A DNA stretch of 64,000 nt, from positions 6,368 to 70,367 of the forward strand of contig CBINGY010000015.1 of the NCBI GenBank assembly GCA_966250325.1, read 5' to 3'. The translations under genes and the position numbers were made by a program. The notes under the pieces were generated by a model that saw only the letters and a program-made list of their open reading frames with translations, was not told the origin of the DNA and ran no database searches. Positions 4,197 to 19,390 of this stretch are shown here, one piece after another (position 1 is the first letter of the stretch; each line of letters begins with the position of its first letter). This DNA is from an uncultured Cytophagaceae bacterium. GTDB lineage: Bacteria > Bacteroidota > Bacteroidia > Cytophagales > Spirosomataceae.

Positions 4197-4320
4197 GGGC
4201 GTGCCCCGTATCACACACAGCAGACCAGCCGCACCGGGTCGGGCTTTCGCTACTCGCCCCATAGCAGTACACAGTCCCAGGCTGCTATGTGGCTCAAACA
4301 GGCCGCTCTATCCCTCACGC
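4197..4320. other. GC-rich (~62% by hand count) non-coding element with a hairpin; possible structured RNA or relic sequence
   Basis: I counted 41/60 and 34/60 G+C in lines 4201-4320, against AT-rich flanks. There is an 8-bp hairpin, CATAGCAG (4260-4267) with CTGCTATG (4282-4289). The ends GCGTG (4199-4203) and CACGC (4316-4320) are complementary. Confidence 0.3.
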
Positions 4321-5526
4321 AGAGAAAGACAGAAGAAATTGAGAGGAAGAAATAATATTCACCTGGATATCATCAAAGATTAAAGATTCTGCTTGATTTA
4401 AGGTTACTATATAACCCTGTTTCAACTTAAAAAAGCGAAGAGCCTCTATCAAGCCATTGATCTCTCTTTCTTTATTGTCAGGGTTTAGAAACTGACACGC
4501 CTGGTAGGCCCCCGTCACCACTTCTTTTTCACGAACGACAAAATCACATTCGCCCTTTTCCTGGAAATAATAAATGGATTCATACCTTTTCCTAAGAGCC
4601 AGAAAGATCATGTTTTCAAATAATCTGCCCGAATCTTCAGAGAAACTCAAGGAGTTAGCCCGGGCAAATGCGGTGTCTATACAATATACCTTTTTAAGAT
4701 TTCTGGTTTGAACTTTTATTGACCAGCTAAACTTTGGTATCGAAAATAAAAGGTACGAATCGTGAAACCAATCCACAAAATTTGCAACCGTATTGGCAGA
4801 TCCTATCCCAAAATTGGCAGCTATCTTATTCAGGGAATAGGTTTTTCCTACATTAGAAATCAGGAAAATTGCCACGTCCATCAATTCCTTGACGTTACGT
4901 ATTCCATACCTTATGGCCACATCCCGATAAACAATATCTCTAAGTAGGTTTTGTAAAATTTCCTCTTTCCCGGTTTTCAAAAATTCAGGAAAACCGCCCG
5001 ATTTCAAATAATAGTTTACAGACTCATCATTGGTAGTCAAGCCCTTAAATAAACAAAACTCTGAAAACGAGAATGGGAAAAGCTCATTTTTGAGATAACG
5101 ACCCGTTAGCCGGGTTCCAAGTTCGCGGCTTAGGAGCGAGGCGTTTGATCCGGTTAGCAATACAGACTTCCTTCGGTCGTGAAGACTACGTACAAATACT
5201 TCCCAATTGGGAATATTCTGGATTTCATCGAAAAAATAGAATTCAATTTCATCACCCAAAATTTCATCAATTTTTATGAGATCAGAAAGTTCAATTCCAA
5301 ATAGGCGAGGATCTTCAAAATTGATAAAAATATGTGTGCCCGTCACTTTTGCCAATATTTGTTTCATTACAGTGCTTTTTCCGGCCCGCCGTATTCCTGT
5401 GATGACTTGAATGAAAGAGCTGTTTGGCAAAATATCGGTTAGAAAATTCCTTATCTGGCCTAGCTCATTATTTTGAAAATCTTGCTTCTGATAGGCAAGG
5501 GCGGTTTTTAATTCCTCTTTCAGCAT
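4315..5526 (-). CDS. AAA+ ATPase of the AAA_14 + DUF4143 type (ATPase with a C-terminal nuclease-like module)
   Basis: Start at the ATG at 5526 (MLKEELK). Walker A is GIRRAGKST and Walker B-like is FYFFDEIQ. The C-terminal GECDFVV block is typical of this family. The gene is AT-rich. Confidence 0.85.
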   Translation of the reverse strand: MLKEELKTALAYQKQDFQNNELGQIRNFLTDILPNSSFIQVITGIRRAGKSTVMKQILAKVTGTHIFINFEDPRLFGIELSDLIKIDEILGDEIEFYFFDEIQNIPNWEVFVRSLHDRRKSVLLTGSNASLLSRELGTRLTGRYLKNELFPFSFSEFCLFKGLTTNDESVNYYLKSGGFPEFLKTGKEEILQNLLRDIVYRDVAIRYGIRNVKELMDVAIFLISNVGKTYSLNKIAANFGIGSANTVANFVDWFHDSYLLFSIPKFSWSIKVQTRNLKKVYCIDTAFARANSLSFSEDSGRLFENMIFLALRKRYESIYYFQEKGECDFVVREKEVVTGAYQACQFLNPDNKEREINGLIEALRFFKLKQGYIVTLNQAESLIFDDIQVNIISSSQFLLSFSA

Positions 5527-10676: not shown

Positions 10677-11669
10677 TTAGATCAATCCTTTACCCAACAA
10701 ATACTCAGCGATCTGCACGGCATTGGTAGCGGCACCTTTGCGGAGGTTATCGGCTACACACCAGAGATTGAGGGTATTGGGTTGAGACTCATCGCGGCGG
10801 ATACGGCCCACAAAAACTTCGTCTTTGCCATGAGCATTCACCGGCATGGGGTACACATTATTGGCGGGATCATCCTGAACCACCACACCAGGCATGGAAG
10901 CAATAAGCTCACGCACGGTTGCGAGGTCAAAATCATTTTCAAATTCAATGTTTACCGCCTCTGAGTGACCTCCGATGGTAGGTATACGTACAGTAGTTGC
11001 CGTTACCTTAATACTGTCATCGCCCATGATCTTGTTGGTCTCTTTGATCATTTTCATTTCCTCTTTGGTGTATCCGTTTTCCTGGAACACGTCAATATGA
11101 GGAAGTACGTTGAGGTCAATTTTATGAGGATAAACCTTGGCAACGCTTTCATCGCCGTTTCTTTCTGCAAATAGCTGATCTACAGCGGCTTTACCCGTGC
11201 CGGTTACCGACTGATAGGTGGAAACCACCACGCGTTTGATTTTGTATTTATCGTGCAGCGGCTTCAGCACCACCACCATTTGAATAGTGGAGCAGTTGGG
11301 GTTGGCAATGATTTTGTCATCTGCCGTAAGCACATCTGCGTTAACTTCAGGCACCACGAGTTTTTTGGTGGGGTCCATACGCCAGGCAGAGGAGTTATCA
11401 ATGACAGTGATGCCGGCTTCGGCAAATTTGGGAGCCACAGCCAGGGACGTGCTTCCGCCAGCTGAGAATACGGCCACATCGGGTTTCATAGAAATAGCCT
11501 CTTCATAGCCCACCACGGTGTATTCTTTTCCCTTAAAGCTTACTTTTTTGCCCACAGAGCGTTCTGAGGCTACAGGAATAATTTCTGTTACCGGGAAATT
11601 TCTTTCATCCAGTACTTTGAGGATTTCGCCACCGACCAGCCCGGTAGCACCTACTACTGCAACTTTCAT
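10677..11669 (-). CDS. asd: Aspartate-semialdehyde dehydrogenase
   Basis: Start at the ATG at 11669 (MKVAVVGATGLVGGE). The active-site block IANPNCSTI is present. Confidence 0.95.
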   Translation of the reverse strand: MKVAVVGATGLVGGEILKVLDERNFPVTEIIPVASERSVGKKVSFKGKEYTVVGYEEAISMKPDVAVFSAGGSTSLAVAPKFAEAGITVIDNSSAWRMDPTKKLVVPEVNADVLTADDKIIANPNCSTIQMVVVLKPLHDKYKIKRVVVSTYQSVTGTGKAAVDQLFAERNGDESVAKVYPHKIDLNVLPHIDVFQENGYTKEEMKMIKETNKIMGDDSIKVTATTVRIPTIGGHSEAVNIEFENDFDLATVRELIASMPGVVVQDDPANNVYPMPVNAHGKDEVFVGRIRRDESQPNTLNLWCVADNLRKGAATNAVQIAEYLLGKGLI

Positions 11670-11803
11670 GATTTTTTTGTTGTAAAATGCCCCCCGACCC
11701 ATGGCAGAGCGTGTCTATTTTACAATAAAGAGAGAGGTCTATTCTCTTTTCCTGTTTTACGGGTGACCCGCTAACGGAGTTACACCTAAACTGTTACGGG
11801 CTG

Positions 11804-11811
11804 CAAAAGTA
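11804..11811 (-). promoter_or_regulatory. -7 box TACTTTTG, candidate asd promoter (implies a ~130-nt leader)
   Basis: Exact TAnnTTTG match on the minus strand between the SIR2-like gene and asd. Confidence 0.35.
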
Positions 11812-11846
11812 ATGCTTAATTGGGAAAATGGGAAGGGGTTTTTATT

Positions 11847-12947
11847 TCAATGTCGACGAGTAATTATATAATCTGATGCAGAAGGGGAACCAGTCAAGAA
11901 ATATTCAGCTGGAACATAAAAGAATGGACTTTCAACAGGAGTGATTGTATAGGGTGCTTTATTTTCAGTGAAAGTTTGCTTTAAATACCGCTCAATTCTT
12001 TGAGAATCAGCAAAATCATAACCCTGCGTGAAAACTTTGGCATCTGATGCTAAATTATGAAAAAATGCGTTGTCAATATCTCGATTGAAAGTTGGAAAGG
12101 AGTAACCAATTACGACTACATATTTAGCGTCTTCGGCAAGCTGATTAAGCATACGAATTTTTTCATCTTTGCCTTCTTCCCAAGAAAACCGGAGTGGATT
12201 TGGTTCTCTACCGGAGTTTAAATCCTCAAAAATATTTAGAAGTAATTTGATTACGGCAAAAGCACCAAAATCTGTCTTTTCAATTAGGCGTTTTGGAATT
12301 AGAGAAGAGCCATTAAGATTGATTAAAGGTAAATTAAGCAAGTTCCATTTTTCAATTACTGCTGCACTGAGATCAGGTTTTGTCGGAATATCGTTAAAGG
12401 CAGTTAGTTCTAGCTGAAAGTCGTAATTCCAAGTAATAAAACTAAAGTTTTTGGGAATTGAAGCCTTACTTTTCAATTGGTCAAATTGATTTACTGATCG
12501 AATGAGATTCTCGTATCTCCCTTCCAACAAATGATTGTAAACGGGTACTCGTAATGTAGAAACCAGCGGTTTGTATTCAATTCTGGAATAATGAAAGTAA
12601 TTGAATAAAACTGTTAGAAACAACTTGTAGTTATCATAATCAGATGTATTATTTTGATCAAACAACCTTTTGGCCAGGGTATCAATACTTGGAGATTGCT
12701 TTACAAGACTTATCCATCTGCTGCAGTGATCGTGAAAGTGCTTAAAATCATCTTTCGAGTCTATTTTAAAGATTTGGTTTGAAATATTGTTCAAGCAATC
12801 AGTTAGAAAACGATCGAAGTCATCAATTCTCTCATTAATCTTACCCACCATTGGTATGGCATTTGCACTAGCCCCAGCCCCAAAATAGTAGGTGATTTTG
12901 TCTTGAAAATTTCTGGTGGGTATCATAGCGGCCGAAGGTTTTTTCAA
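11847..12947 (-). CDS. Stand-alone SIR2-like (SIR2_2-type) domain protein
   Basis: Ordered blocks are YYFGAGASANAIP, FITWNYDFQLE, PLINLNGSS and YVVVIGYSFPTFNRDID. The track start is TTG at 12947; the first ATG is at 12926. The gene is markedly AT-rich. Confidence 0.7.
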   Translation of the reverse strand: MKKPSAAMIPTRNFQDKITYYFGAGASANAIPMVGKINERIDDFDRFLTDCLNNISNQIFKIDSKDDFKHFHDHCSRWISLVKQSPSIDTLAKRLFDQNNTSDYDNYKLFLTVLFNYFHYSRIEYKPLVSTLRVPVYNHLLEGRYENLIRSVNQFDQLKSKASIPKNFSFITWNYDFQLELTAFNDIPTKPDLSAAVIEKWNLLNLPLINLNGSSLIPKRLIEKTDFGAFAVIKLLLNIFEDLNSGREPNPLRFSWEEGKDEKIRMLNQLAEDAKYVVVIGYSFPTFNRDIDNAFFHNLASDAKVFTQGYDFADSQRIERYLKQTFTENKAPYTITPVESPFFYVPAEYFLTGSPSASDYIITRRH

Positions 12948-13091: not shown

Positions 13092-14948
13092 ATGACAATT
13101 ATACGTGCCAATCGCCTCTTAAGCTATTCTATCATTTCGGGAGCTTTACTTCTGGGAATTCATACCGAATCTGCCGCTCAGCGGAAAAAAGCCACTGCCC
13201 GAATCATTCATCCCGATTTTTTTGGAGTTACTCTGAATACGGAAAACTTTGACCACAAAGGCGGAATCAGTGCGGAATTGATTTCAAATCATTCGTTCCT
13301 AAAAGAGGAGGGAGAGCGTTTTCCGGCAGGCTGGAGCATCGTGAGAAAAGAGGGAGCGGCTGGAACAATGAATCACGATACAGAAAGGCCTCTTCATGAG
13401 AAGAATAAAGGGTATCTGGTTTTAAACAGTGAAAATCCCGGTAAGATAGGTCTTACGGTTCGTAATCGGGGCTTTGAAGGCATTTATGTACGTGAAGGAC
13501 AAAACTTTAAACTATCCTTTTATGCACGGGAAGAGCAGGGCAACAGTCTGAAGCTGGTGGCCCGTCTGGTCAATAAAGATGGTCTCATCATCGATGAAGA
13601 ACGATTTGAAAGTAAGGGAAGTGACTGGCAGAAATATGAAGCTGTATTGAGTTCGCCCATTACAGAAGGAGGAGCCTCTCTGGAAATTGGTTTGCTGAGT
13701 CGCGGTTCGCTGGCTTTGGATATGGTTTCATTAAAGCCGGCTGAAACATTCATGAATCATGGTTTCCGGGCGGATATTTCGCAGGCAGTTGCCGATTTAC
13801 ACCCCTCATTTGTGAGACTCAAAATTGGAAATCTTGCAAACTGGAAAAAAGGTTTAGGTGCACCAGAGGAGCGGGATGAGAAGTATTCAGAACCAGGCTT
13901 ATTTGAATACCTGCAGTTTTGCGAAGATATTGGGTCAGGGGCAGTTCCGGTAGTGGCTCTTGAAGGCGATAAAGCCAATGAAGACGAAACCGAAGCTTAC
14001 ATACGGGAAATCCTGGGTCTGCTTGAATTTGCGACAAGTACCGATCGCCGTTCGTCACTTGCAAAAAAACGTGCTGAAATGGGTCATGAAAAACCATTTA
14101 ATATTGCGTATCTGACTCTGGGAGACCGGGAGAAAATGACTTCAAAATCGGTTGAAAAATTTACGGCAGCTTACAAGGCCATAAAGAGAGAATTTCCGGA
14201 GATCAAGGTGATAGGTTCTGCCGGAGAATCTACAGAGGGTTCAGATTATGCTACGGCCTGGGAGATGGCCACAGATCTGCGACTTCCGTTCATGAGCGAG
14301 CAGTTACATGAAAATGCCGTATGGCTTGATGAAAACCGCGATCGCTATGACTTCTTTAACCGCAACGACTCCAAGGTGGTGGTTGGTGAATTTACTTCTT
14401 CAGCAAATGATTTGAAAAGTGCCATAACAGAAGCAGCTTTCCTTAGCAATCTGGAAAAAAACGCCGACGTAGTTTCACTGGTTTCCTATGCTCCTGTTTT
14501 GGATGAGGAAAACGGGCTTCTGGAATATGATGCGAAGGGAGTTTACCCTACAGCAAATTATTATGTTCAGCAGCTTTTTGCCTCAAATCTCGGTGATGAG
14601 TTTCTGGATCGGGTAACTTATGTAAGAGAATTTAATAAGGCCATTGCAGTAAGCTGCGTACGCGATAATGAAAGCGGAGATGTGATTGTGAAAATTTCTA
14701 ACAATGCCGATAAGGATGGGCATGTGCAAATAGACCTCAGGAGGTTATCGGTGGAAACACTGACGATGGAGCAAAGTATGATCAGAAACAAAGACGGCAA
14801 GATTGAAAATACGGTGACGAATCCGAATGCCGTGGTACCCAAACATCGCAAGCTGAAAGTGGGAGCCAGCAATTTCATGGTTGATAGCTGGGCAAATTCT
14901 TACATGGTGCTGCGTTTTTCGGGGAATAAGTCAACGGCGATGCGTTAG
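13092..14948 (+). CDS. Secreted alpha-L-arabinofuranosidase-like (GH51-like, with N-terminal CBM-like region) protein
   Basis: A signal peptide is present. GGISAELISNHSF resembles the GGLYAEL..NRSFE block of GH51-type enzymes. Family assignment is tentative. Confidence 0.6.
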   Translation: MTIIRANRLLSYSIISGALLLGIHTESAAQRKKATARIIHPDFFGVTLNTENFDHKGGISAELISNHSFLKEEGERFPAGWSIVRKEGAAGTMNHDTERPLHEKNKGYLVLNSENPGKIGLTVRNRGFEGIYVREGQNFKLSFYAREEQGNSLKLVARLVNKDGLIIDEERFESKGSDWQKYEAVLSSPITEGGASLEIGLLSRGSLALDMVSLKPAETFMNHGFRADISQAVADLHPSFVRLKIGNLANWKKGLGAPEERDEKYSEPGLFEYLQFCEDIGSGAVPVVALEGDKANEDETEAYIREILGLLEFATSTDRRSSLAKKRAEMGHEKPFNIAYLTLGDREKMTSKSVEKFTAAYKAIKREFPEIKVIGSAGESTEGSDYATAWEMATDLRLPFMSEQLHENAVWLDENRDRYDFFNRNDSKVVVGEFTSSANDLKSAITEAAFLSNLEKNADVVSLVSYAPVLDEENGLLEYDAKGVYPTANYYVQQLFASNLGDEFLDRVTYVREFNKAIAVSCVRDNESGDVIVKISNNADKDGHVQIDLRRLSVETLTMEQSMIRNKDGKIENTVTNPNAVVPKHRKLKVGASNFMVDSWANSYMVLRFSGNKSTAMR

Positions 14949-17900
14949 GGATTACTACAGCCCGTAATTTCAGCCTTAAAATATCCGCCGCTTGCCGGCA
15001 AAGACATGAAGCCTGGTTTGAGGATTACCTCGTTCCAGGCTTTATAGTTTGATTTGGATGTGCCAGTGAGGGTTTCGGTGGAGGAAATACTTCCTTTGCC
15101 CGAAATATTATGAGAACCTGAGACGAATGTTCCGGAAGTAGTAAAAACGGTGGGTCGTATTTTAAAAGCCGCCGATTCATAACTTACCGCAACCGGGTCA
15201 GTAGAAACTACCCGAAGTTTATAATGATCACCAGACGGAATACCGTGAGGCACCTGAATATTGACAGGCAAGGTGGCCGATAAGCCTGAAAGCAAAATGG
15301 TAGAATCTGCAAAATTTCCCAAAGAATCTGAAAGCTCCACGCGAAACAGATTATCAACATTATAGCTGCCGGTCACTTCCATCACCACTTTCATGATTTC
15401 GCATTGACCTACCTGTTCTTTATCCAGATTGGCAAAAATGAAAGGGTCATTGGTTTCTACATTGATCAGATAATCCTCAGTTTCGCCGGTGATGTAGGTG
15501 CCGCAGGAAGTCATGTAGGTTCCGGTTTCTATCTCGGTTTCGTCGGTGACTCTAAGTCGCAGTCGCCTAATTCCCGGTGAGGTGTTCGCCGGTACCAATA
15601 GAGAAAATGAGTAAGGATTATTTTGGACAGAAGTGTTGCCGAGCAATTCATTAACGTCTTCAAAATCCCCATCATTATTCAAGTCAATCCAAAAACCAAG
15701 ACGTTTGGCAGGAATGGTTCCTTCAAAATCGTGAATTCTGGCAGAAATTGACCTATCATTTATGCCTCCTACGATAGTTTCATTGATTTTGGTATTACTG
15801 GAATACGCACTGCCTAAACAGCCCGAGTTAAATGGACTCCATATTGCCCAAGAATTTGTTGAATAATTATAAGTAAAAACTTCCGAGATATAATGATCTG
15901 CCGAACAGCCGTTAGTATGAACAGGAATACAATAATTTACTGGGTTTCCAGCCGTTTGCACAGCCAATTTTGACATAGAAGAAAAGCAGGTTTCTCCCGG
16001 TAGTTTTGTGGCTAAATAGAGGTCATATTGAGTTCCGGCTAAAAGGCCAGTAACGATAATTGGATTTGATTCATTAGCTAGAGACAAGAGGCTGTCGGCT
16101 ACCAAATAGGGCAATCCAGAGGAATCTATACCCGTTATAAATTGCTCAAGAGTAGGAGTGGGATTACCTGACGGAACCGCTACATACCATACTTCCGCGT
16201 TTTGACTTACCGGAGCGTTCAACACAAAACCATTATTGGTTTCATTGATGGCTTGAGGATAACCGGGTAAAAATAAGGCCGACCCCTGAGTAATCTCAAT
16301 AGGCTCCGAATCTGCATGAATGATAGGAACAGCCGTATTGGTGGAAATGACCCGAAGCCGGTAACCAGTACCAGAAACGGCTGAATTTGGAATCTGGCCA
16401 TAAATGGGAGAAGTTTCTGAGCTACCGATTTTAGTGGCGTTGCTGAAGTTACCATTGGCATCAGAAAGCCAAAGCTCATACGAATTATGCTCAGAGAAAG
16501 CCCCGTTTCGGTAAAAAGTGACCTTTAAAGGCTCATTTACACATAAGGAAGTAGGGTATTTTGCATAAATAATACTGTCAGCCACAGAGCTTCTGAAGTA
16601 ATCGGTGGAATAGAGGCCGCCGTAATAAGTGGATACTATTAATTGACCGTCTGACTCTCGGTACCAAATCCGATAACGTTCAATACCGGGAATGTTTCCT
16701 GTGATTTCATTCCAGACAGGAGACTCACTCAAAAAGTTATTAGTAAAAAATACACCTTCTGAAATTGATACAAAAACCTTATTCAGATTTGCCGGTTCAA
16801 ACGCATAATAGAGGTTATATGCATTCAAATTTTGTGTTTTATGCTGCCATGTTTCGCCACCGTTCAGACTTAAATGGAGAGAGCCATATGAACCGGCAAA
16901 AATTATTTGAGGGTTGTCACGACAGACATTAAGTTGATTGAAATATAAATTTGGTAAACCTATTTCCTCATAAGTTCCAGTATTGTCAGGTAAAACAGAA
17001 ATACGATATAGATGGTTGGTTTCTTCTTCGCTGTAATTTTGGATTAAAAATTCATTCTCTGATGATGCATAAATATTCGGATAATAGAAATACTTATTTA
17101 CAAGGATATTTTCAATTCTCTCTTGGCCAGAGCCCACATCCAATACCTTAAAAAAGACTGTTTGATTGTTGATTTCGCTGGAAAACTTATAGCCATAGAT
17201 TGTATTATTTATTTCATCATAAGCCCAAGGCCCATAATAGTTGCCAAGATCGACATAGTGATCGTCAAAGTTTCCTTCCCTATCAAAAAACGATATTAAA
17301 TTACCTGACAAAAAATTCAGTCCTGGTTCATTTTTATCTGTGTATTTCGAAGCCTGACCGTAATAATCTGGGAATGAATTAATGGTTTCAAAGTAGTTTG
17401 TACCACTAAACGCCCATGGTCTTGAATTTGAACCATTGGTAAAGAGGAGCGAGTCATTAAAATTATTTGGGAAATCCAGACCATATACCCATGCCGTATT
17501 TAAATCTTTTCTTCTATCGGACGAAGAAATTTCAGAGCCAGAAAACAAGCCAGTGATTAACTCAATATCTTGTTCACCTGAAGCCACTGTTATACCGCTT
17601 GAACTTACCATAAGGTGGTTACCATAAGAATAAATAATGAAATTAGGATTTGTAAACCATGACGAACCCCCAGTAATAGAATAAACAAGGCTTCCTGAAA
17701 ACATCGCAAATTTATTAGGATCAGTTTTGTCAACATGAAAGGATACATTACCTCGAAGATTGAAGTGAACACCACTAAATAAAGGAATTGACAAATTGAC
17801 CCAGTTGTTTCCGCCATCATTACTTTTTCTAATCCAGTTAATTGAATTTTGATTATAAGGGGCTTTGGTGTTTAAAGCATATAGAACCTTATTGTTATTT

Positions 17901-18733
17901 GAATCTTTCCCTATTGCTATTTCTGTATACTGTGATTGATTAGAAAGTGAAAGTGTCATGATGTTCGTCCAAGTACCACCGGTCGGGGTAGAAGAGCGGT
18001 AGATTTTGCCGCTGGCGAGACCCACATAAATCAGACCATCATGATCAAAGGTCAGAGACGTTGCAATAGGATTAGAATCTTGCCAAAAGGTAGCTTGAAT
18101 ATCTATGAATGATTCGAATTCATTGGTACTTCTGTTAAACGTATAAACGGTATTAAATAAAGAATTAAAAGGCTCAAAACTGCAAGAAAATAATTCTCCA
18201 TGTGGATTATATTTTAAATAAAATGAATAGCTCGATTCATGAAAATTCCAGGTCTCACCACCATCGATTGAAATATAGAAATTGCCAAAAGTAGAAATTG
18301 CCATTTCCAAAGGGTTTAGTGGGTTTTGTGCAATCGAAAAAACTCTCTCGTTAACATTTTCTACTTCATGCCAGGATGAATCCGTCAGTATATCATTATT
18401 GTACCAAAGCCCGCCATTGGTTGCCAGCCAGGCCTTCTTCCCAGAGGGATCATTGGCATCAAAAAGAAAGTCATTAAAACCTTCAGAAAGAGCTTTCGGC
18501 CCTCTGGGTTTCCAATCCACCGGTAGTGAAGCCGTGGTATTTACCGTGTTTAGACTCTGATCTTTGTTATTTTTTTCTTCCGCTTTTCGCTTTAGAATCT
18601 CGGCCAGTAAGGCTTCCTTTTTAGCTTGTTGCTGAGCAAAAAGGAGAGAATCGTAGGTAACGGGATTTTGACCTTTAGCAGGAAAAATGAGTAGTGCCAT
18701 CAAGGCAATAAGTAGGAGAGAGATGTGCTTCAT
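14945..18733 (-). CDS. Very large secreted surface protein with BNR/sortilin-type repeats and a GEVED-like domain
   Basis: 1262 aa with a signal peptide. SxDxGxxW-type repeats are SIDGGETW, SNDGGNNW and SLNGGETW. The GEVED-like block reads WIDLNNDGDFED...GETEDYLINV. The gene is AT-rich. Confidence 0.85.
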   Translation of the reverse strand: MKHISLLLIALMALLIFPAKGQNPVTYDSLLFAQQQAKKEALLAEILKRKAEEKNNKDQSLNTVNTTASLPVDWKPRGPKALSEGFNDFLFDANDPSGKKAWLATNGGLWYNNDILTDSSWHEVENVNERVFSIAQNPLNPLEMAISTFGNFYISIDGGETWNFHESSYSFYLKYNPHGELFSCSFEPFNSLFNTVYTFNRSTNEFESFIDIQATFWQDSNPIATSLTFDHDGLIYVGLASGKIYRSSTPTGGTWTNIMTLSLSNQSQYTEIAIGKDSNNNKVLYALNTKAPYNQNSINWIRKSNDGGNNWVNLSIPLFSGVHFNLRGNVSFHVDKTDPNKFAMFSGSLVYSITGGSSWFTNPNFIIYSYGNHLMVSSSGITVASGEQDIELITGLFSGSEISSSDRRKDLNTAWVYGLDFPNNFNDSLLFTNGSNSRPWAFSGTNYFETINSFPDYYGQASKYTDKNEPGLNFLSGNLISFFDREGNFDDHYVDLGNYYGPWAYDEINNTIYGYKFSSEINNQTVFFKVLDVGSGQERIENILVNKYFYYPNIYASSENEFLIQNYSEEETNHLYRISVLPDNTGTYEEIGLPNLYFNQLNVCRDNPQIIFAGSYGSLHLSLNGGETWQHKTQNLNAYNLYYAFEPANLNKVFVSISEGVFFTNNFLSESPVWNEITGNIPGIERYRIWYRESDGQLIVSTYYGGLYSTDYFRSSVADSIIYAKYPTSLCVNEPLKVTFYRNGAFSEHNSYELWLSDANGNFSNATKIGSSETSPIYGQIPNSAVSGTGYRLRVISTNTAVPIIHADSEPIEITQGSALFLPGYPQAINETNNGFVLNAPVSQNAEVWYVAVPSGNPTPTLEQFITGIDSSGLPYLVADSLLSLANESNPIIVTGLLAGTQYDLYLATKLPGETCFSSMSKLAVQTAGNPVNYCIPVHTNGCSADHYISEVFTYNYSTNSWAIWSPFNSGCLGSAYSSNTKINETIVGGINDRSISARIHDFEGTIPAKRLGFWIDLNNDGDFEDVNELLGNTSVQNNPYSFSLLVPANTSPGIRRLRLRVTDETEIETGTYMTSCGTYITGETEDYLINVETNDPFIFANLDKEQVGQCEIMKVVMEVTGSYNVDNLFRVELSDSLGNFADSTILLSGLSATLPVNIQVPHGIPSGDHYKLRVVSTDPVAVSYESAAFKIRPTVFTTSGTFVSGSHNISGKGSISSTETLTGTSKSNYKAWNEVILKPGFMSLPASGGYFKAEITGCSNP

Positions 18734-18808: not shown

Positions 18809-19390
18809 TTAAAAATCCCATACCCTCCCAGCCGTGAACGTATAATCAAGAGGGACATCCGTTTTTTCAACTTCACTAATGAGATTTTCGGGCTCAAAAA
18901 AGCTCAGGCCTACAATGAGGGTGTTTTCGGTTCTGTATGAAAGAAAACGGTCGTAGTAACCTTTGCCGTAGCCGATTCGGTTTCCTTTTTTGTCGTAAAC
19001 CAGCAGGGGGACTATCACCAGAATATCGTCATCGGTATTGAAAAATTCTTCACTGGTCTGGCCTTCATTGACCGGCTCTGGTACATTCCATGGGTTTAAT
19101 TCCAGCGTAGTTTCCTTTTCAAAAAGATGATGAGTCAGAATGCCGCCCGGGTGAATTTTGGGAACAAAAACACTTACCGGAAAGTCTTTGTGAAGGGTGT
19201 CAATGATAGGTTGAGTATCTACTTCTTTTTTGTCAATGACGGGCAGATAGCAGTGAACTTTATCATACCGATGTATCATGAGCCTGCTGAAAAGCAACTC
19301 TTTTATGGCCTTGCTTTTGGCAACCACTTCTTCGTCTGTGAGGAGCAGACGTTTTTCCAGATACGCTTTTCTTAGGGTTGATTTGTTCAT
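18809..19390 (-). CDS. 5-formyltetrahydrofolate cyclo-ligase
   Basis: 193 aa with the MTHFS pattern, including the GYGKGYYDRFL block. Confidence 0.85.
   Translation of the reverse strand: MNKSTLRKAYLEKRLLLTDEEVVAKSKAIKELLFSRLMIHRYDKVHCYLPVIDKKEVDTQPIIDTLHKDFPVSVFVPKIHPGGILTHHLFEKETTLELNPWNVPEPVNEGQTSEEFFNTDDDILVIVPLLVYDKKGNRIGYGKGYYDRFLSYRTENTLIVGLSFFEPENLISEVEKTDVPLDYTFTAGRVWDF

Follow-up and report, generated by a model that had tools for sequence, protein, structure and literature searches.

A single-domain SIR2-like family of Bacteroidota with asparagine at the catalytic histidine position: a possible stand-alone defence gene

Introduction

This study examined a SIR2-like gene in a 64,000-nucleotide stretch of DNA from an uncultured Cytophagaceae bacterium (GenBank assembly GCA_966250325.1, contig CBINGY010000015.1, positions 6,368 to 70,367; hereafter the window, with coordinates counted from its first letter). 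The gene lies on the minus strand at 11847..12926, with its stop codon at 11847-11849, and its product of 359 amino acids (aa) is a single-domain member of a large, mainly Bacteroidota clade within the immune-type SIR2 group. In this family every other active-site hallmark is kept, the position of the catalytic histidine (His) is fixed as asparagine (Asn), and no sensor is fused or adjacent. The explanation favoured here, held tentatively and at a little under even confidence, is that the protein is a candidate single-gene defence of the abortive-infection type, comparable to AbiH.

Few effectors of bacterial immunity are as common as SIR2 domains, whose human relatives include FAM118A and FAM118B. 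To our knowledge, every characterised immune SIR2 depends on one catalytic His. The Bacteroidota, in turn, are poorly covered by defence-system discovery. If active, the present family would represent either cleavage of nicotinamide adenine dinucleotide (NAD+) without His in an immune SIR2 or an ADP-ribosylating branch of immune SIR2, and it would additionally offer a minimal system in which to study the sensing of infection by one SIR2 domain. An inactive family would be an uncommon example of a pseudo-enzyme that is strictly conserved and spreads horizontally.

Results and Discussion

Assignment to the SIR2 superfamily

Counts of family sequences below refer either to a first alignment of 69 relatives or to a wider alignment of 251 sequences at about 25% overall identity. 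An earlier note, made from the letters of the window alone, had proposed a SIR2-type fold of the prokaryotic SIR2_2 kind, and the PADLOC, Pfam, KomC profile and Foldseek matches agree on this assignment. Family-level profiles were required to reach it: the window protein on its own gave no SIR2 match in Pfam, NCBIfam or PDB sequence searches, the Pfam SIR2_2 family (PF13289) remaining unmatched even at E <= 10. It did match two PADLOC SIR2 models at E of about 4e-4. Within the first alignment, SIR2_2 was matched weakly by 27 of the 69 relatives (best E 3.1e-5), the PADLOC SIR2 model PDLC04084 by 15 (best 5e-10) and Aga_SIR2 by four (best 5e-9). The sole meaningful PDB sequence match of the family profile was KomC, the SIR2 NAD+-cleaving enzyme (NADase) of Kongming, with the GAGxS, TNYD, (H/N)G and IGYS blocks paired in order.

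An AlphaFold2 model built from the family alignment reached a predicted local distance difference score (pLDDT) of 91.5 and a predicted template modelling score (pTM) of 0.89. When this model was searched with Foldseek, a check that had been suggested along with the original assignment, the top PDB matches all belonged to the SIR2 superfamily (SIR2-HerA, FAM118B, SPARSA, SIRT1/2/3, CobB and DSR2), the best being SIR2-HerA chain 8sub_B (E 9e-4, probability 0.99). As modelled, the protein is a strongly diverged SIR2 Rossmann fold with an inserted helical small domain. The C-terminal region of about 100 aa that had been regarded as unassigned is part of the same fold: strands 304-308 and 334-338 and the accompanying helices are modelled with high confidence, and the final 100 residues carry the near-invariant Q308 and F343.

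Conserved cysteines (Cys) were also sought across the family alignment, and no column exceeded 8% Cys. Therefore, no zinc (Zn) ribbon is present, which places the protein in the immune-type "sirim" (SIR2_2) branch and not among the classical sirtuins, a distinction taken from a published phylogeny.

Gene start, composition and conserved residues

The listed open reading frame (ORF) spans 11847..12947 on the minus strand and gives 366 aa if started at TTG; residue numbers throughout follow this 366-aa numbering, counted from the upstream TTG at 12947. The ATG at 12926 is almost certainly the true start, since homologues begin there (MxPTRNF) and the resulting 359-aa product equals the gene call of public assemblies. 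The seven-codon TTG extension (12927..12947, minus strand) is without aligned residues in any homologue, gene callers choose the ATG, and the segment is probably an untranslated 5' region (5' UTR). The reading frame and the four motifs of the earlier note, YYFGAGASANAIP, FITWNYDFQLE, PLINLNGSS and YVVVIGYSFPTFNRDID, were all found in the order described. Its remark on AT-richness was likewise correct, the G+C fraction (GC) of the gene being 0.352 compared with 0.447 over the window as a whole and 0.455 +/- 0.034 for the other ORFs of its first 24 kb.

The conserved residues, all encoded on the minus strand, are spread over the length of the protein. The dinucleotide-binding loop GAGASANAIP (12852..12881; G23 A24 G25 A26 S27 ... 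P32) follows strand 1 and pairs with GAGVSMNLGLP of KomC in the profile alignment; the residues named are invariant among the 69 relatives and are kept in 247-249 of the 251 sequences of the wider set. Within the helical small domain, D89 (12681..12683) of the family-specific motif S-I-D-T-x-A-K occurs in 250 of 251 sequences. A further family-specific pair, R144-Y145 (12513..12518; R in 250 and Y in 247 of 251), opens the helix modelled at 143-152 before the WNYD strand. The WNYD block itself, W173-N174-Y175-D176 (12420..12431), is equivalent to TNYD/TNFD and pairs with TNYD of KomC and with TNFD (N163) of FAM118B; N, Y and D are present in 251 of 251 sequences and W173 in 250.

The segment N210-L211-N212-G213 (12309..12320, with N212 at 12312-12314) follows a short strand modelled at 208-210. 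It precedes W256-E257 (12177..12182), which forms part of a family-specific acidic F-x-W-E motif (W in 248 of 251, E or D in 243 of 251) and is a candidate for a substitute catalytic carboxylate. The GYS..D block, G281-Y-S-F-P-T-F-N288-R-D-I-D292 (12072..12107), follows strand 274-280 and pairs with IGYS of KomC; G281, Y282, P285, N288 and D292 are found in all 251 sequences.

Asparagine at the catalytic histidine position

The proposal that the catalytic His position reads Asn was borne out by two independent alignments, in which N212 was paired with H146 of KomC and with H206 of FAM118B, while N174 was paired with the catalytic Asn of KomC and of FAM118B (N163). The FAM118B query sequence agreed with four published residue numbers (F122, N163, H206 and D255). 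Additionally, the KomC H146N chain (9xvc) outscored wild-type KomC against the family profile because the family has Asn at this position. Across the family, the canonical K/H-h-H-G motif becomes K/H/R-h-N-G, with Asn212 in 250 of the 251 sequences and His in none of the 251. Judged from these alignments, the His-to-Asn change defines the clade, is under purifying selection and is no local lesion. Its prevalence, together with the strict conservation of the active site at about 25% identity, argues for an enzyme under selection and against an inactive decoy produced by simple decay, one of the options that had been raised for this gene.

A relocated catalytic His was looked for; the best His column (H-x-S-I-D-T) is filled in no more than 152 of 251 sequences and in no member of the window's close subclade, which shares 34-59% identity and is found only in Leadbetterellaceae (Arcticibacterium, Lacihabitans, Leadbetterella and Emticicia). 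This His, four residues before D89, is present in 152 of the 219 members (69%) outside that subclade; the Leadbetterellaceae sequences have S, V, T or A there, the window residue being S85 (12693-12695). In some members the His of H-x-S-I-D-T might be a relocated catalytic residue, or it may have no connection with catalysis.

Family size and distribution

The gene had been described as an orphan; it belongs instead to a large family, with 1,812 matching representatives at 50% identity (798 of them at E <= 1e-10) and 503 loci among 185,579 species-representative genomes. The protein also matched 153 clusters at 90% identity with E <= 1e-3. All members seen are single-domain proteins of 292-415 aa with no fused domain. 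The 80 best genome loci, on which the neighbourhood counts below are based, are almost all from Bacteroidota (Cytophagales, Chitinophagales, Sphingobacteriales, Flavobacteriales and Bacteroidales), with Rhodothermia/Balneola in addition; a few outlier loci are labelled Leptospira, Halioglobus, Rhizobium and Deltaproteobacteria, and some genomes hold two copies (L011 and L028; L018 and L066). Low GC is not confined to the window gene: the mean difference between a family gene and the other ORFs at its locus is 7.4 GC points (n=71, Wilcoxon p = 9e-13), the family genes being lower in 93% of the 71 loci and the lowest-GC ORF in 55%. In a full-text search, limited to the literature that it covered, no immune SIR2 clade lacking the His was seen to be described.

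Genomic neighbourhoods and linkage to restriction-modification operons

When 1,149 ORFs of the 80 loci were clustered all against all in search of a conserved partner gene, no neighbour cluster recurred more than three times. The homologues likewise do not sit in a fixed metabolic neighbourhood, which the earlier note had set against its own proposal, no neighbour being conserved over the 80 loci. A minority of loci instead showed linkage to type I restriction-modification (R-M) systems: in 8 of the 80, HsdM, HsdS or HsdR genes lie within four genes of the SIR2-like gene and always on the same strand, whereas type I R-M genes were present in none of 80 asd-anchored control loci (Fisher p = 0.0065; the controls are mutually syntenic and cover fewer bases). 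The six most tightly embedded copies have gaps of -4 to +47 bp. Within the operon of L052 the gaps are -4, -4, 0 and +5 bp, and at a Leptospira locus 47 and 23 bp separate hsdS, the SIR2-like gene and hsdR; the SIR2-like gene lies between hsdS and hsdR in L045 and L052. According to published work, a gene found inside a type I R-M or related operon is often a defence system in its own right, as exemplified by TgvAB, and candidates chosen through such "guilt-by-embedding" were validated in 7 of 9 tests by Payne et al., where no SIR2 family is mentioned.

Two of the R-M operons additionally contain a gene for a YhcG/DUF1016 PD-(D/E)XK nuclease (L018:7452-8543 and L052:704-2305), and with the SIR2-like gene each of these operons therefore carries two passengers. 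A PADLOC scan of the neighbours was little informative, its listing being dominated by redundant type I specificity-subunit models.

Four further members were chosen solely for lying on long contigs. One lies directly after a complete hsdM-hsdS-hsdR operon (P0058), one adjoins a phage-type integrase in an island beside dnaA (P0075), one stands at the head of a group of small hypothetical genes in which Kinase-PolyVal and GT4-conflict domains occur (P0091), and one is a lone insert amid housekeeping genes (P0100). Directly downstream of a Sphingobacteriales member (L167:9200-12033) are small hypothetical genes, one of them with Kinase-PolyVal, followed by a GT4-conflict glycosyltransferase gene, which suggests a small biological-conflict island beside thiC. 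Other neighbours include reverse transcriptases (L012, L043) and Schlafen/AlbA_2-DUF5929 genes (L031, L076, L079). At the latter three loci, all from Flavobacteriaceae (L031:9253-12204, L076:9236-12257 and L079:9236-12235), the SIR2-like gene is placed between a short-chain dehydrogenase gene and the Schlafen/AlbA_2-DUF5929 gene, with gaps of 0-1 bp on the dehydrogenase side and, downstream, of 25-30 bp (L076, L079) or 416 bp (L031), so that the three genes form a recurrent arrangement.

A variable junction between 5-formyltetrahydrofolate cyclo-ligase and asd

The window locus was compared with 80 metagenomic contigs retrieved with the window's asd. In the conserved backbone, asd comes directly after a 5-formyltetrahydrofolate (FTHF) cyclo-ligase gene, and the junction between the two is a variable hotspot. 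In the window, the left-hand boundary is the ligase gene (18809..19390, minus strand; Pfam 5-FTHF_cyc-lig) and the right-hand boundary is asd, encoding aspartate-semialdehyde dehydrogenase (10677..11669, minus strand), which is recognised by a Semialdhyde_dh Pfam match on the syntenic gene and is 85-91% identical in relatives. The junction of the window holds the SIR2-like gene and two further cargo genes, an arabinofuranosidase-like gene of the glycoside hydrolase (GH) family GH51-like type (13092-14948, plus strand; Pfam ASD1_dom and Alpha-L-AF_C) and a gene for a 1,262-aa GEVED-domain protein (14945-18733, minus strand; Pfam GEVED). Neither of these two genes had a tblastn match in the syntenic relatives L005 and L086-L165. 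The GEVED-domain gene has a GC of 0.396, with 0.33-0.39 over 16500-18300.

The relatives fill the junction differently. It is empty, at 124-179 bp, in L089, L090, L092 and L101 (asd 81-83% identical), and it measures 470-800 bp, with a small ORF in most cases, in L091, L093, L094, L096, L099, L100, L102, L114 and others (asd 79-84%). The closest relative, L086 (asd 91%), contains GH9, DUF2281-type antitoxin, ParE and GH130 genes and is without the SIR2-like gene. In L087 and L081 (asd 84-85%) a PF09720 antitoxin gene and a ParE-like ORF accompany a SIR2-like gene that is 59% identical, while L005, a metagenome-assembled genome (MAG) of Arcticibacterium (asd 85%), has a frameshifted, stop-ridden SIR2-like copy in which GYSFP has become GYSLP. 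The gene lies beside asd also in L081-L083 and L005; in the Lacihabitans clade, a homologue of 45-46% identity is found about 25 bp downstream of metG. Because the junction is empty or otherwise filled in relatives, the L005 copy is a pseudogene, and the placement is beside asd or metG according to clade, the gene is accessory: it is inherited locally, is dispensable and varies in position between clades. No meaningful direct or inverted repeats, tRNA or integrase were found as insertion scars at the window junction.

The copy in L005 (10001-11060) is a pseudogene whose central third, including WNYD and LNG, is out of frame with at least seven stops; a MAG assembly error is a possible alternative cause of its lesions. 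A type II toxin-antitoxin pair (a PF09720 or DUF2281 antitoxin with ParE) is located in the junction at L087:4285-4732 (equal to L081:4778-4996 and downstream) and at L086:4122-4659. In one lineage this small pair directly precedes the SIR2-like gene, in the closest relative it is present without that gene, and there is none in the window.

The gene had been said to have no co-oriented partner. This does not hold as worded, since asd lies on the same strand about 178 nt downstream, but asd is not a functional partner and no neighbour is conserved family-wide. The spacer from the SIR2-like stop to the likely asd start (11670..11846, minus strand; about 178 nt) was read in sequence. No terminator was found in it, an Rfam scan gave no credible match (alpha_tmRNA at 12.5 bits and E 0.31, which is noise), and sigma-70-type promoter matches were at background level in a scan that does not cover Bacteroidota promoters. 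Relatives without the insert keep 125-180 bp upstream of asd. The longest asd ORF (10677-11702, minus strand) starts at ATG 11702 (MGRGAFYNKKIMKVAVVGATG...). The real start is probably the internal ATG at 11669 (MKVAVVGATG), since homologues and the conserved N-terminal GATG motif point there, and the 33 extra nt would then be 5' UTR.

Two further features of the window lie away from the junction. A low-GC ORF of 403 aa (4315-5526, minus strand; GC 0.382 compared with about 0.46 in its neighbours) has no tblastn counterpart in L005. Tandem paralogues of 254 and 257 aa (1070-1834 and 1855-2628, both plus strand) are 78% and 64% identical to the single ThuA-family gene of L005, and this pair looks like a local tandem duplication.

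Proposed mechanism and alternative explanations

Under the favoured explanation of a single-gene, abortive-infection-type defence, NAD+ would be bound in the canonical pocket (GAGAS loop, WNYD and GYSFP..N...D) and nicotinamide would be cleaved off by N174/D176 together with the N212 amide. By analogy with Gln137 of SirTM, the class M sirtuins, N212 may position the nicotinamide ribose, and a family-specific acid, E257 or D292, possibly assists. The ADP-ribosyl acceptor would be either water, leading to NAD+ depletion, or a macromolecular target, leading to ADP-ribosylation; water is given a slight preference because the nearest characterised relatives are NADases. The protein is probably held inactive until infection and then switched on by oligomerisation, as are other immune SIR2 proteins, and in the roughly 10% of loci where it lies within a type I R-M operon it would back up restriction as a second defence. 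An invariant amide in a strictly conserved active site more likely marks altered NAD+ chemistry than inactivity. A more specific proposal, though an unlikely one, is that the His-less immune SIR2 ADP-ribosylates a phage or host macromolecule without bulk NAD+ hydrolysis, as a single-protein effector that sometimes backs R-M. If true, the family would add to SIR2 defence a mechanistic class that had gone unrecognised and is widespread in Bacteroidota.

Several observations weigh against a defensive NADase. Loss of the His abolishes NAD processing in every immune SIR2 tested, namely KomC (H146A), ThsA (H152A) and FAM118B (H206A), and the deposited KomC structure 9xvc carries exactly the His-to-Asn change as an engineered mutation. 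The only described natural SIR2 class without the catalytic His is SirTM, in which it is replaced by an absolutely conserved Gln137, in contact with the ribose 3'-OH as well as with a conserved Arg; SirTM is a robust NAD+-dependent protein ADP-ribosyltransferase, and its Q137H form is inactive. Because His loss kills KomC, ThsA and FAM118B and SirTM is an ADP-ribosyltransferase, the canonical NADase reaction is doubtful for the present protein. Additionally, the likeness to solved SIR2 structures is weak (TM 0.3-0.4), and neither tblastn against plasmid and phage collections nor a BFVD fold search of viral structure models found a homologue. The 145 immediate neighbours in the family carry 169 Pfam families, mostly of ordinary metabolism, and in Leadbetterellaceae the gene is stably placed beside asd or metG. 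The whereabouts of the homologues, which the earlier note had wanted compared with variable regions and defence islands, agree with a defence role in so far as the junction is variable and a minority lies in R-M operons, but the window copy lies outside any defence island, among CAZyme-like and housekeeping neighbours (the arabinofuranosidase-like, GEVED and asd genes). The case for defence is thus made from family-level context only, and the interpretation of the earlier note is supported in part.

It is improbable that the protein is a SirTM-like regulator that mono-ADP-ribosylates a specific target for stress or metabolic regulation, with neither NAD+ depletion nor immunity involved. SirTM, with its amide at the His position, modifies a specific protein and dies when that Gln is reverted to His; the present family has an invariant amide in Asn212 and an invariant Arg in R144, and housekeeping genes are its neighbours at many loci, the window included. 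SirTM, however, resides in a fixed operon with GcvH-L, a macrodomain protein and LplA2, whereas no conserved neighbour or macrodomain partner was found in the 80 loci, and the sequence and structure matches of the family are to immune SIR2 proteins instead of the sirtuin clade. A housekeeping regulator would also not be expected to show patchy distribution, low GC, presence/absence variation, pseudogenisation and R-M embedding. Less likely again is a protein that has lost catalysis but still binds NAD+, ADP-ribose or a related nucleotide, as a sensor, sponge or regulator. The alanine substitutions cited above and the top rank of the KomC H146N chain among the PDB sequence matches to the family profile fit such a role, and non-catalytic SIR2-like domains have precedents such as that of SAMD9. 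A mere binder, however, need not fix N174 and D176 in 251 of 251 and N212 in 250 of 251 sequences, and a stand-alone protein without a conserved partner has no obvious target to regulate. The SIR2-like domain of SAMD9 was rejected as a non-catalytic model, since SAMD9 is without the NAD lid, a helical domain that is retained in the modelled structure of the present family.

A housekeeping sirtuin-type deacylase or metabolic enzyme tied to asd (lysine/threonine pathway) or to metG is the most improbable of these explanations, to be entertained only marginally. The gene precedes asd on the same strand by about 178 nt, no terminator having been found in the spacer, this arrangement is kept in L081-L083 and L005, and the Lacihabitans copy follows metG by only about 25 bp. 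Against this, L086 is without the gene although its asd is 91% identical, the junction is empty in other relatives, the L005 copy is a pseudogene, and the neighbour is asd or metG by clade and unconserved family-wide. The deacylase mechanism requires the missing His, no Zn-ribbon Cys set is present, and only 503 loci occur in the 185,579 genomes. The presence/absence data largely refute such a housekeeping role. Functions that were not considered account for the remaining probability.

Comparison with known systems

The closest parallel to the proposed single-gene defence is AbiH of Lactococcus (PF14253), which is likewise a single stand-alone gene, encodes about 350 aa and resembles sirtuins by HHpred and AlphaFold. 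AbiH is counted among the SIR2-containing antiphage systems, is chromosomal or borne on integrative and conjugative elements (ICE), and has a presumed NAD+ mechanism. In contrast to it, the window protein has no PF14253 or PADLOC AbiH match; 1 of the 69 relatives matches PF14253 weakly (1.2e-3), and none matches the PADLOC model.

The earlier note had observed that a stand-alone single domain fits none of the ThsA, DSR, SIR2-HerA and pAgo architectures, and this was upheld system by system. Thoeris ThsA combines a SLOG or Macro fusion with the TIR protein ThsB, whereas the present family is single-domain, with no TIR among the 25 most frequent Pfam families of its 145 neighbours. DSR1 and DSR2 are proteins of about 1,000 aa with a large C-terminal sensor, whereas the whole 359-aa chain of the window protein is modelled as the SIR2 fold. 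SIR2-HerA (Nezha) and SPARSA have an obligate HerA or pAgo/APAZ gene; neither HerA nor Piwi is among those 25 neighbour families. KomC of Kongming, which has H146, works in a complex with KomB (and KomA) from one operon, unlike the present family with its Asn at that position and no conserved neighbour.

SirTM resembles the family only in having an amide in place of the His, Gln in SirTM and Asn here. It belongs to the sirtuin clade and to an operon with GcvH-L, a macrodomain protein and LplA2, whereas neither a macrodomain nor GcvH is among the 25 most frequent neighbour families of the present genes. Classical sirtuins (CobB, SIRT1-7) have a four-Cys Zn ribbon and a His general base, both of which are missing in the family. 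Defence genes embedded in R-M operons, such as PrrC, TgvAB and the HEC/PDC candidates of Payne et al., are comparable in context, 8 of 80 loci and P0058 being co-directional with type I R-M, but are unrelated proteins (anticodon nuclease, GmrSD-like), and most members of the present family, including the window copy, are not embedded. A DARNA preprint describes a HEPN tRNase and has no bearing on SIR2, the His or NADase activity.

The best sequence and structure matches of the family are the immune SIR2 NADases (KomC, ThsA, DSR2, SIR2-HerA, SPARSA and FAM118B), to which the protein is a distant relative. These proteins have and require the catalytic His where the present clade has an invariant Asn, and they are fused to or partnered with SLOG, HerA, pAgo, KomB or large C-terminal domains, of which the family has neither kind. 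Because it is without the catalytic His and without sensor modules, the family is not filed under ThsA, DSR, SIR2-HerA, SPARSA or KomC. Common to the immune SIR2 NADases and the family are GAGxS, (T/W)N(Y/F)D, a strand ending in K/H-h-X-G, GYS..D, a helical small domain and the lack of a Zn ribbon, and to this shared framework the family adds invariant residues of its own, namely D89, R144, Y145, W256/E257, N288 and Q308.

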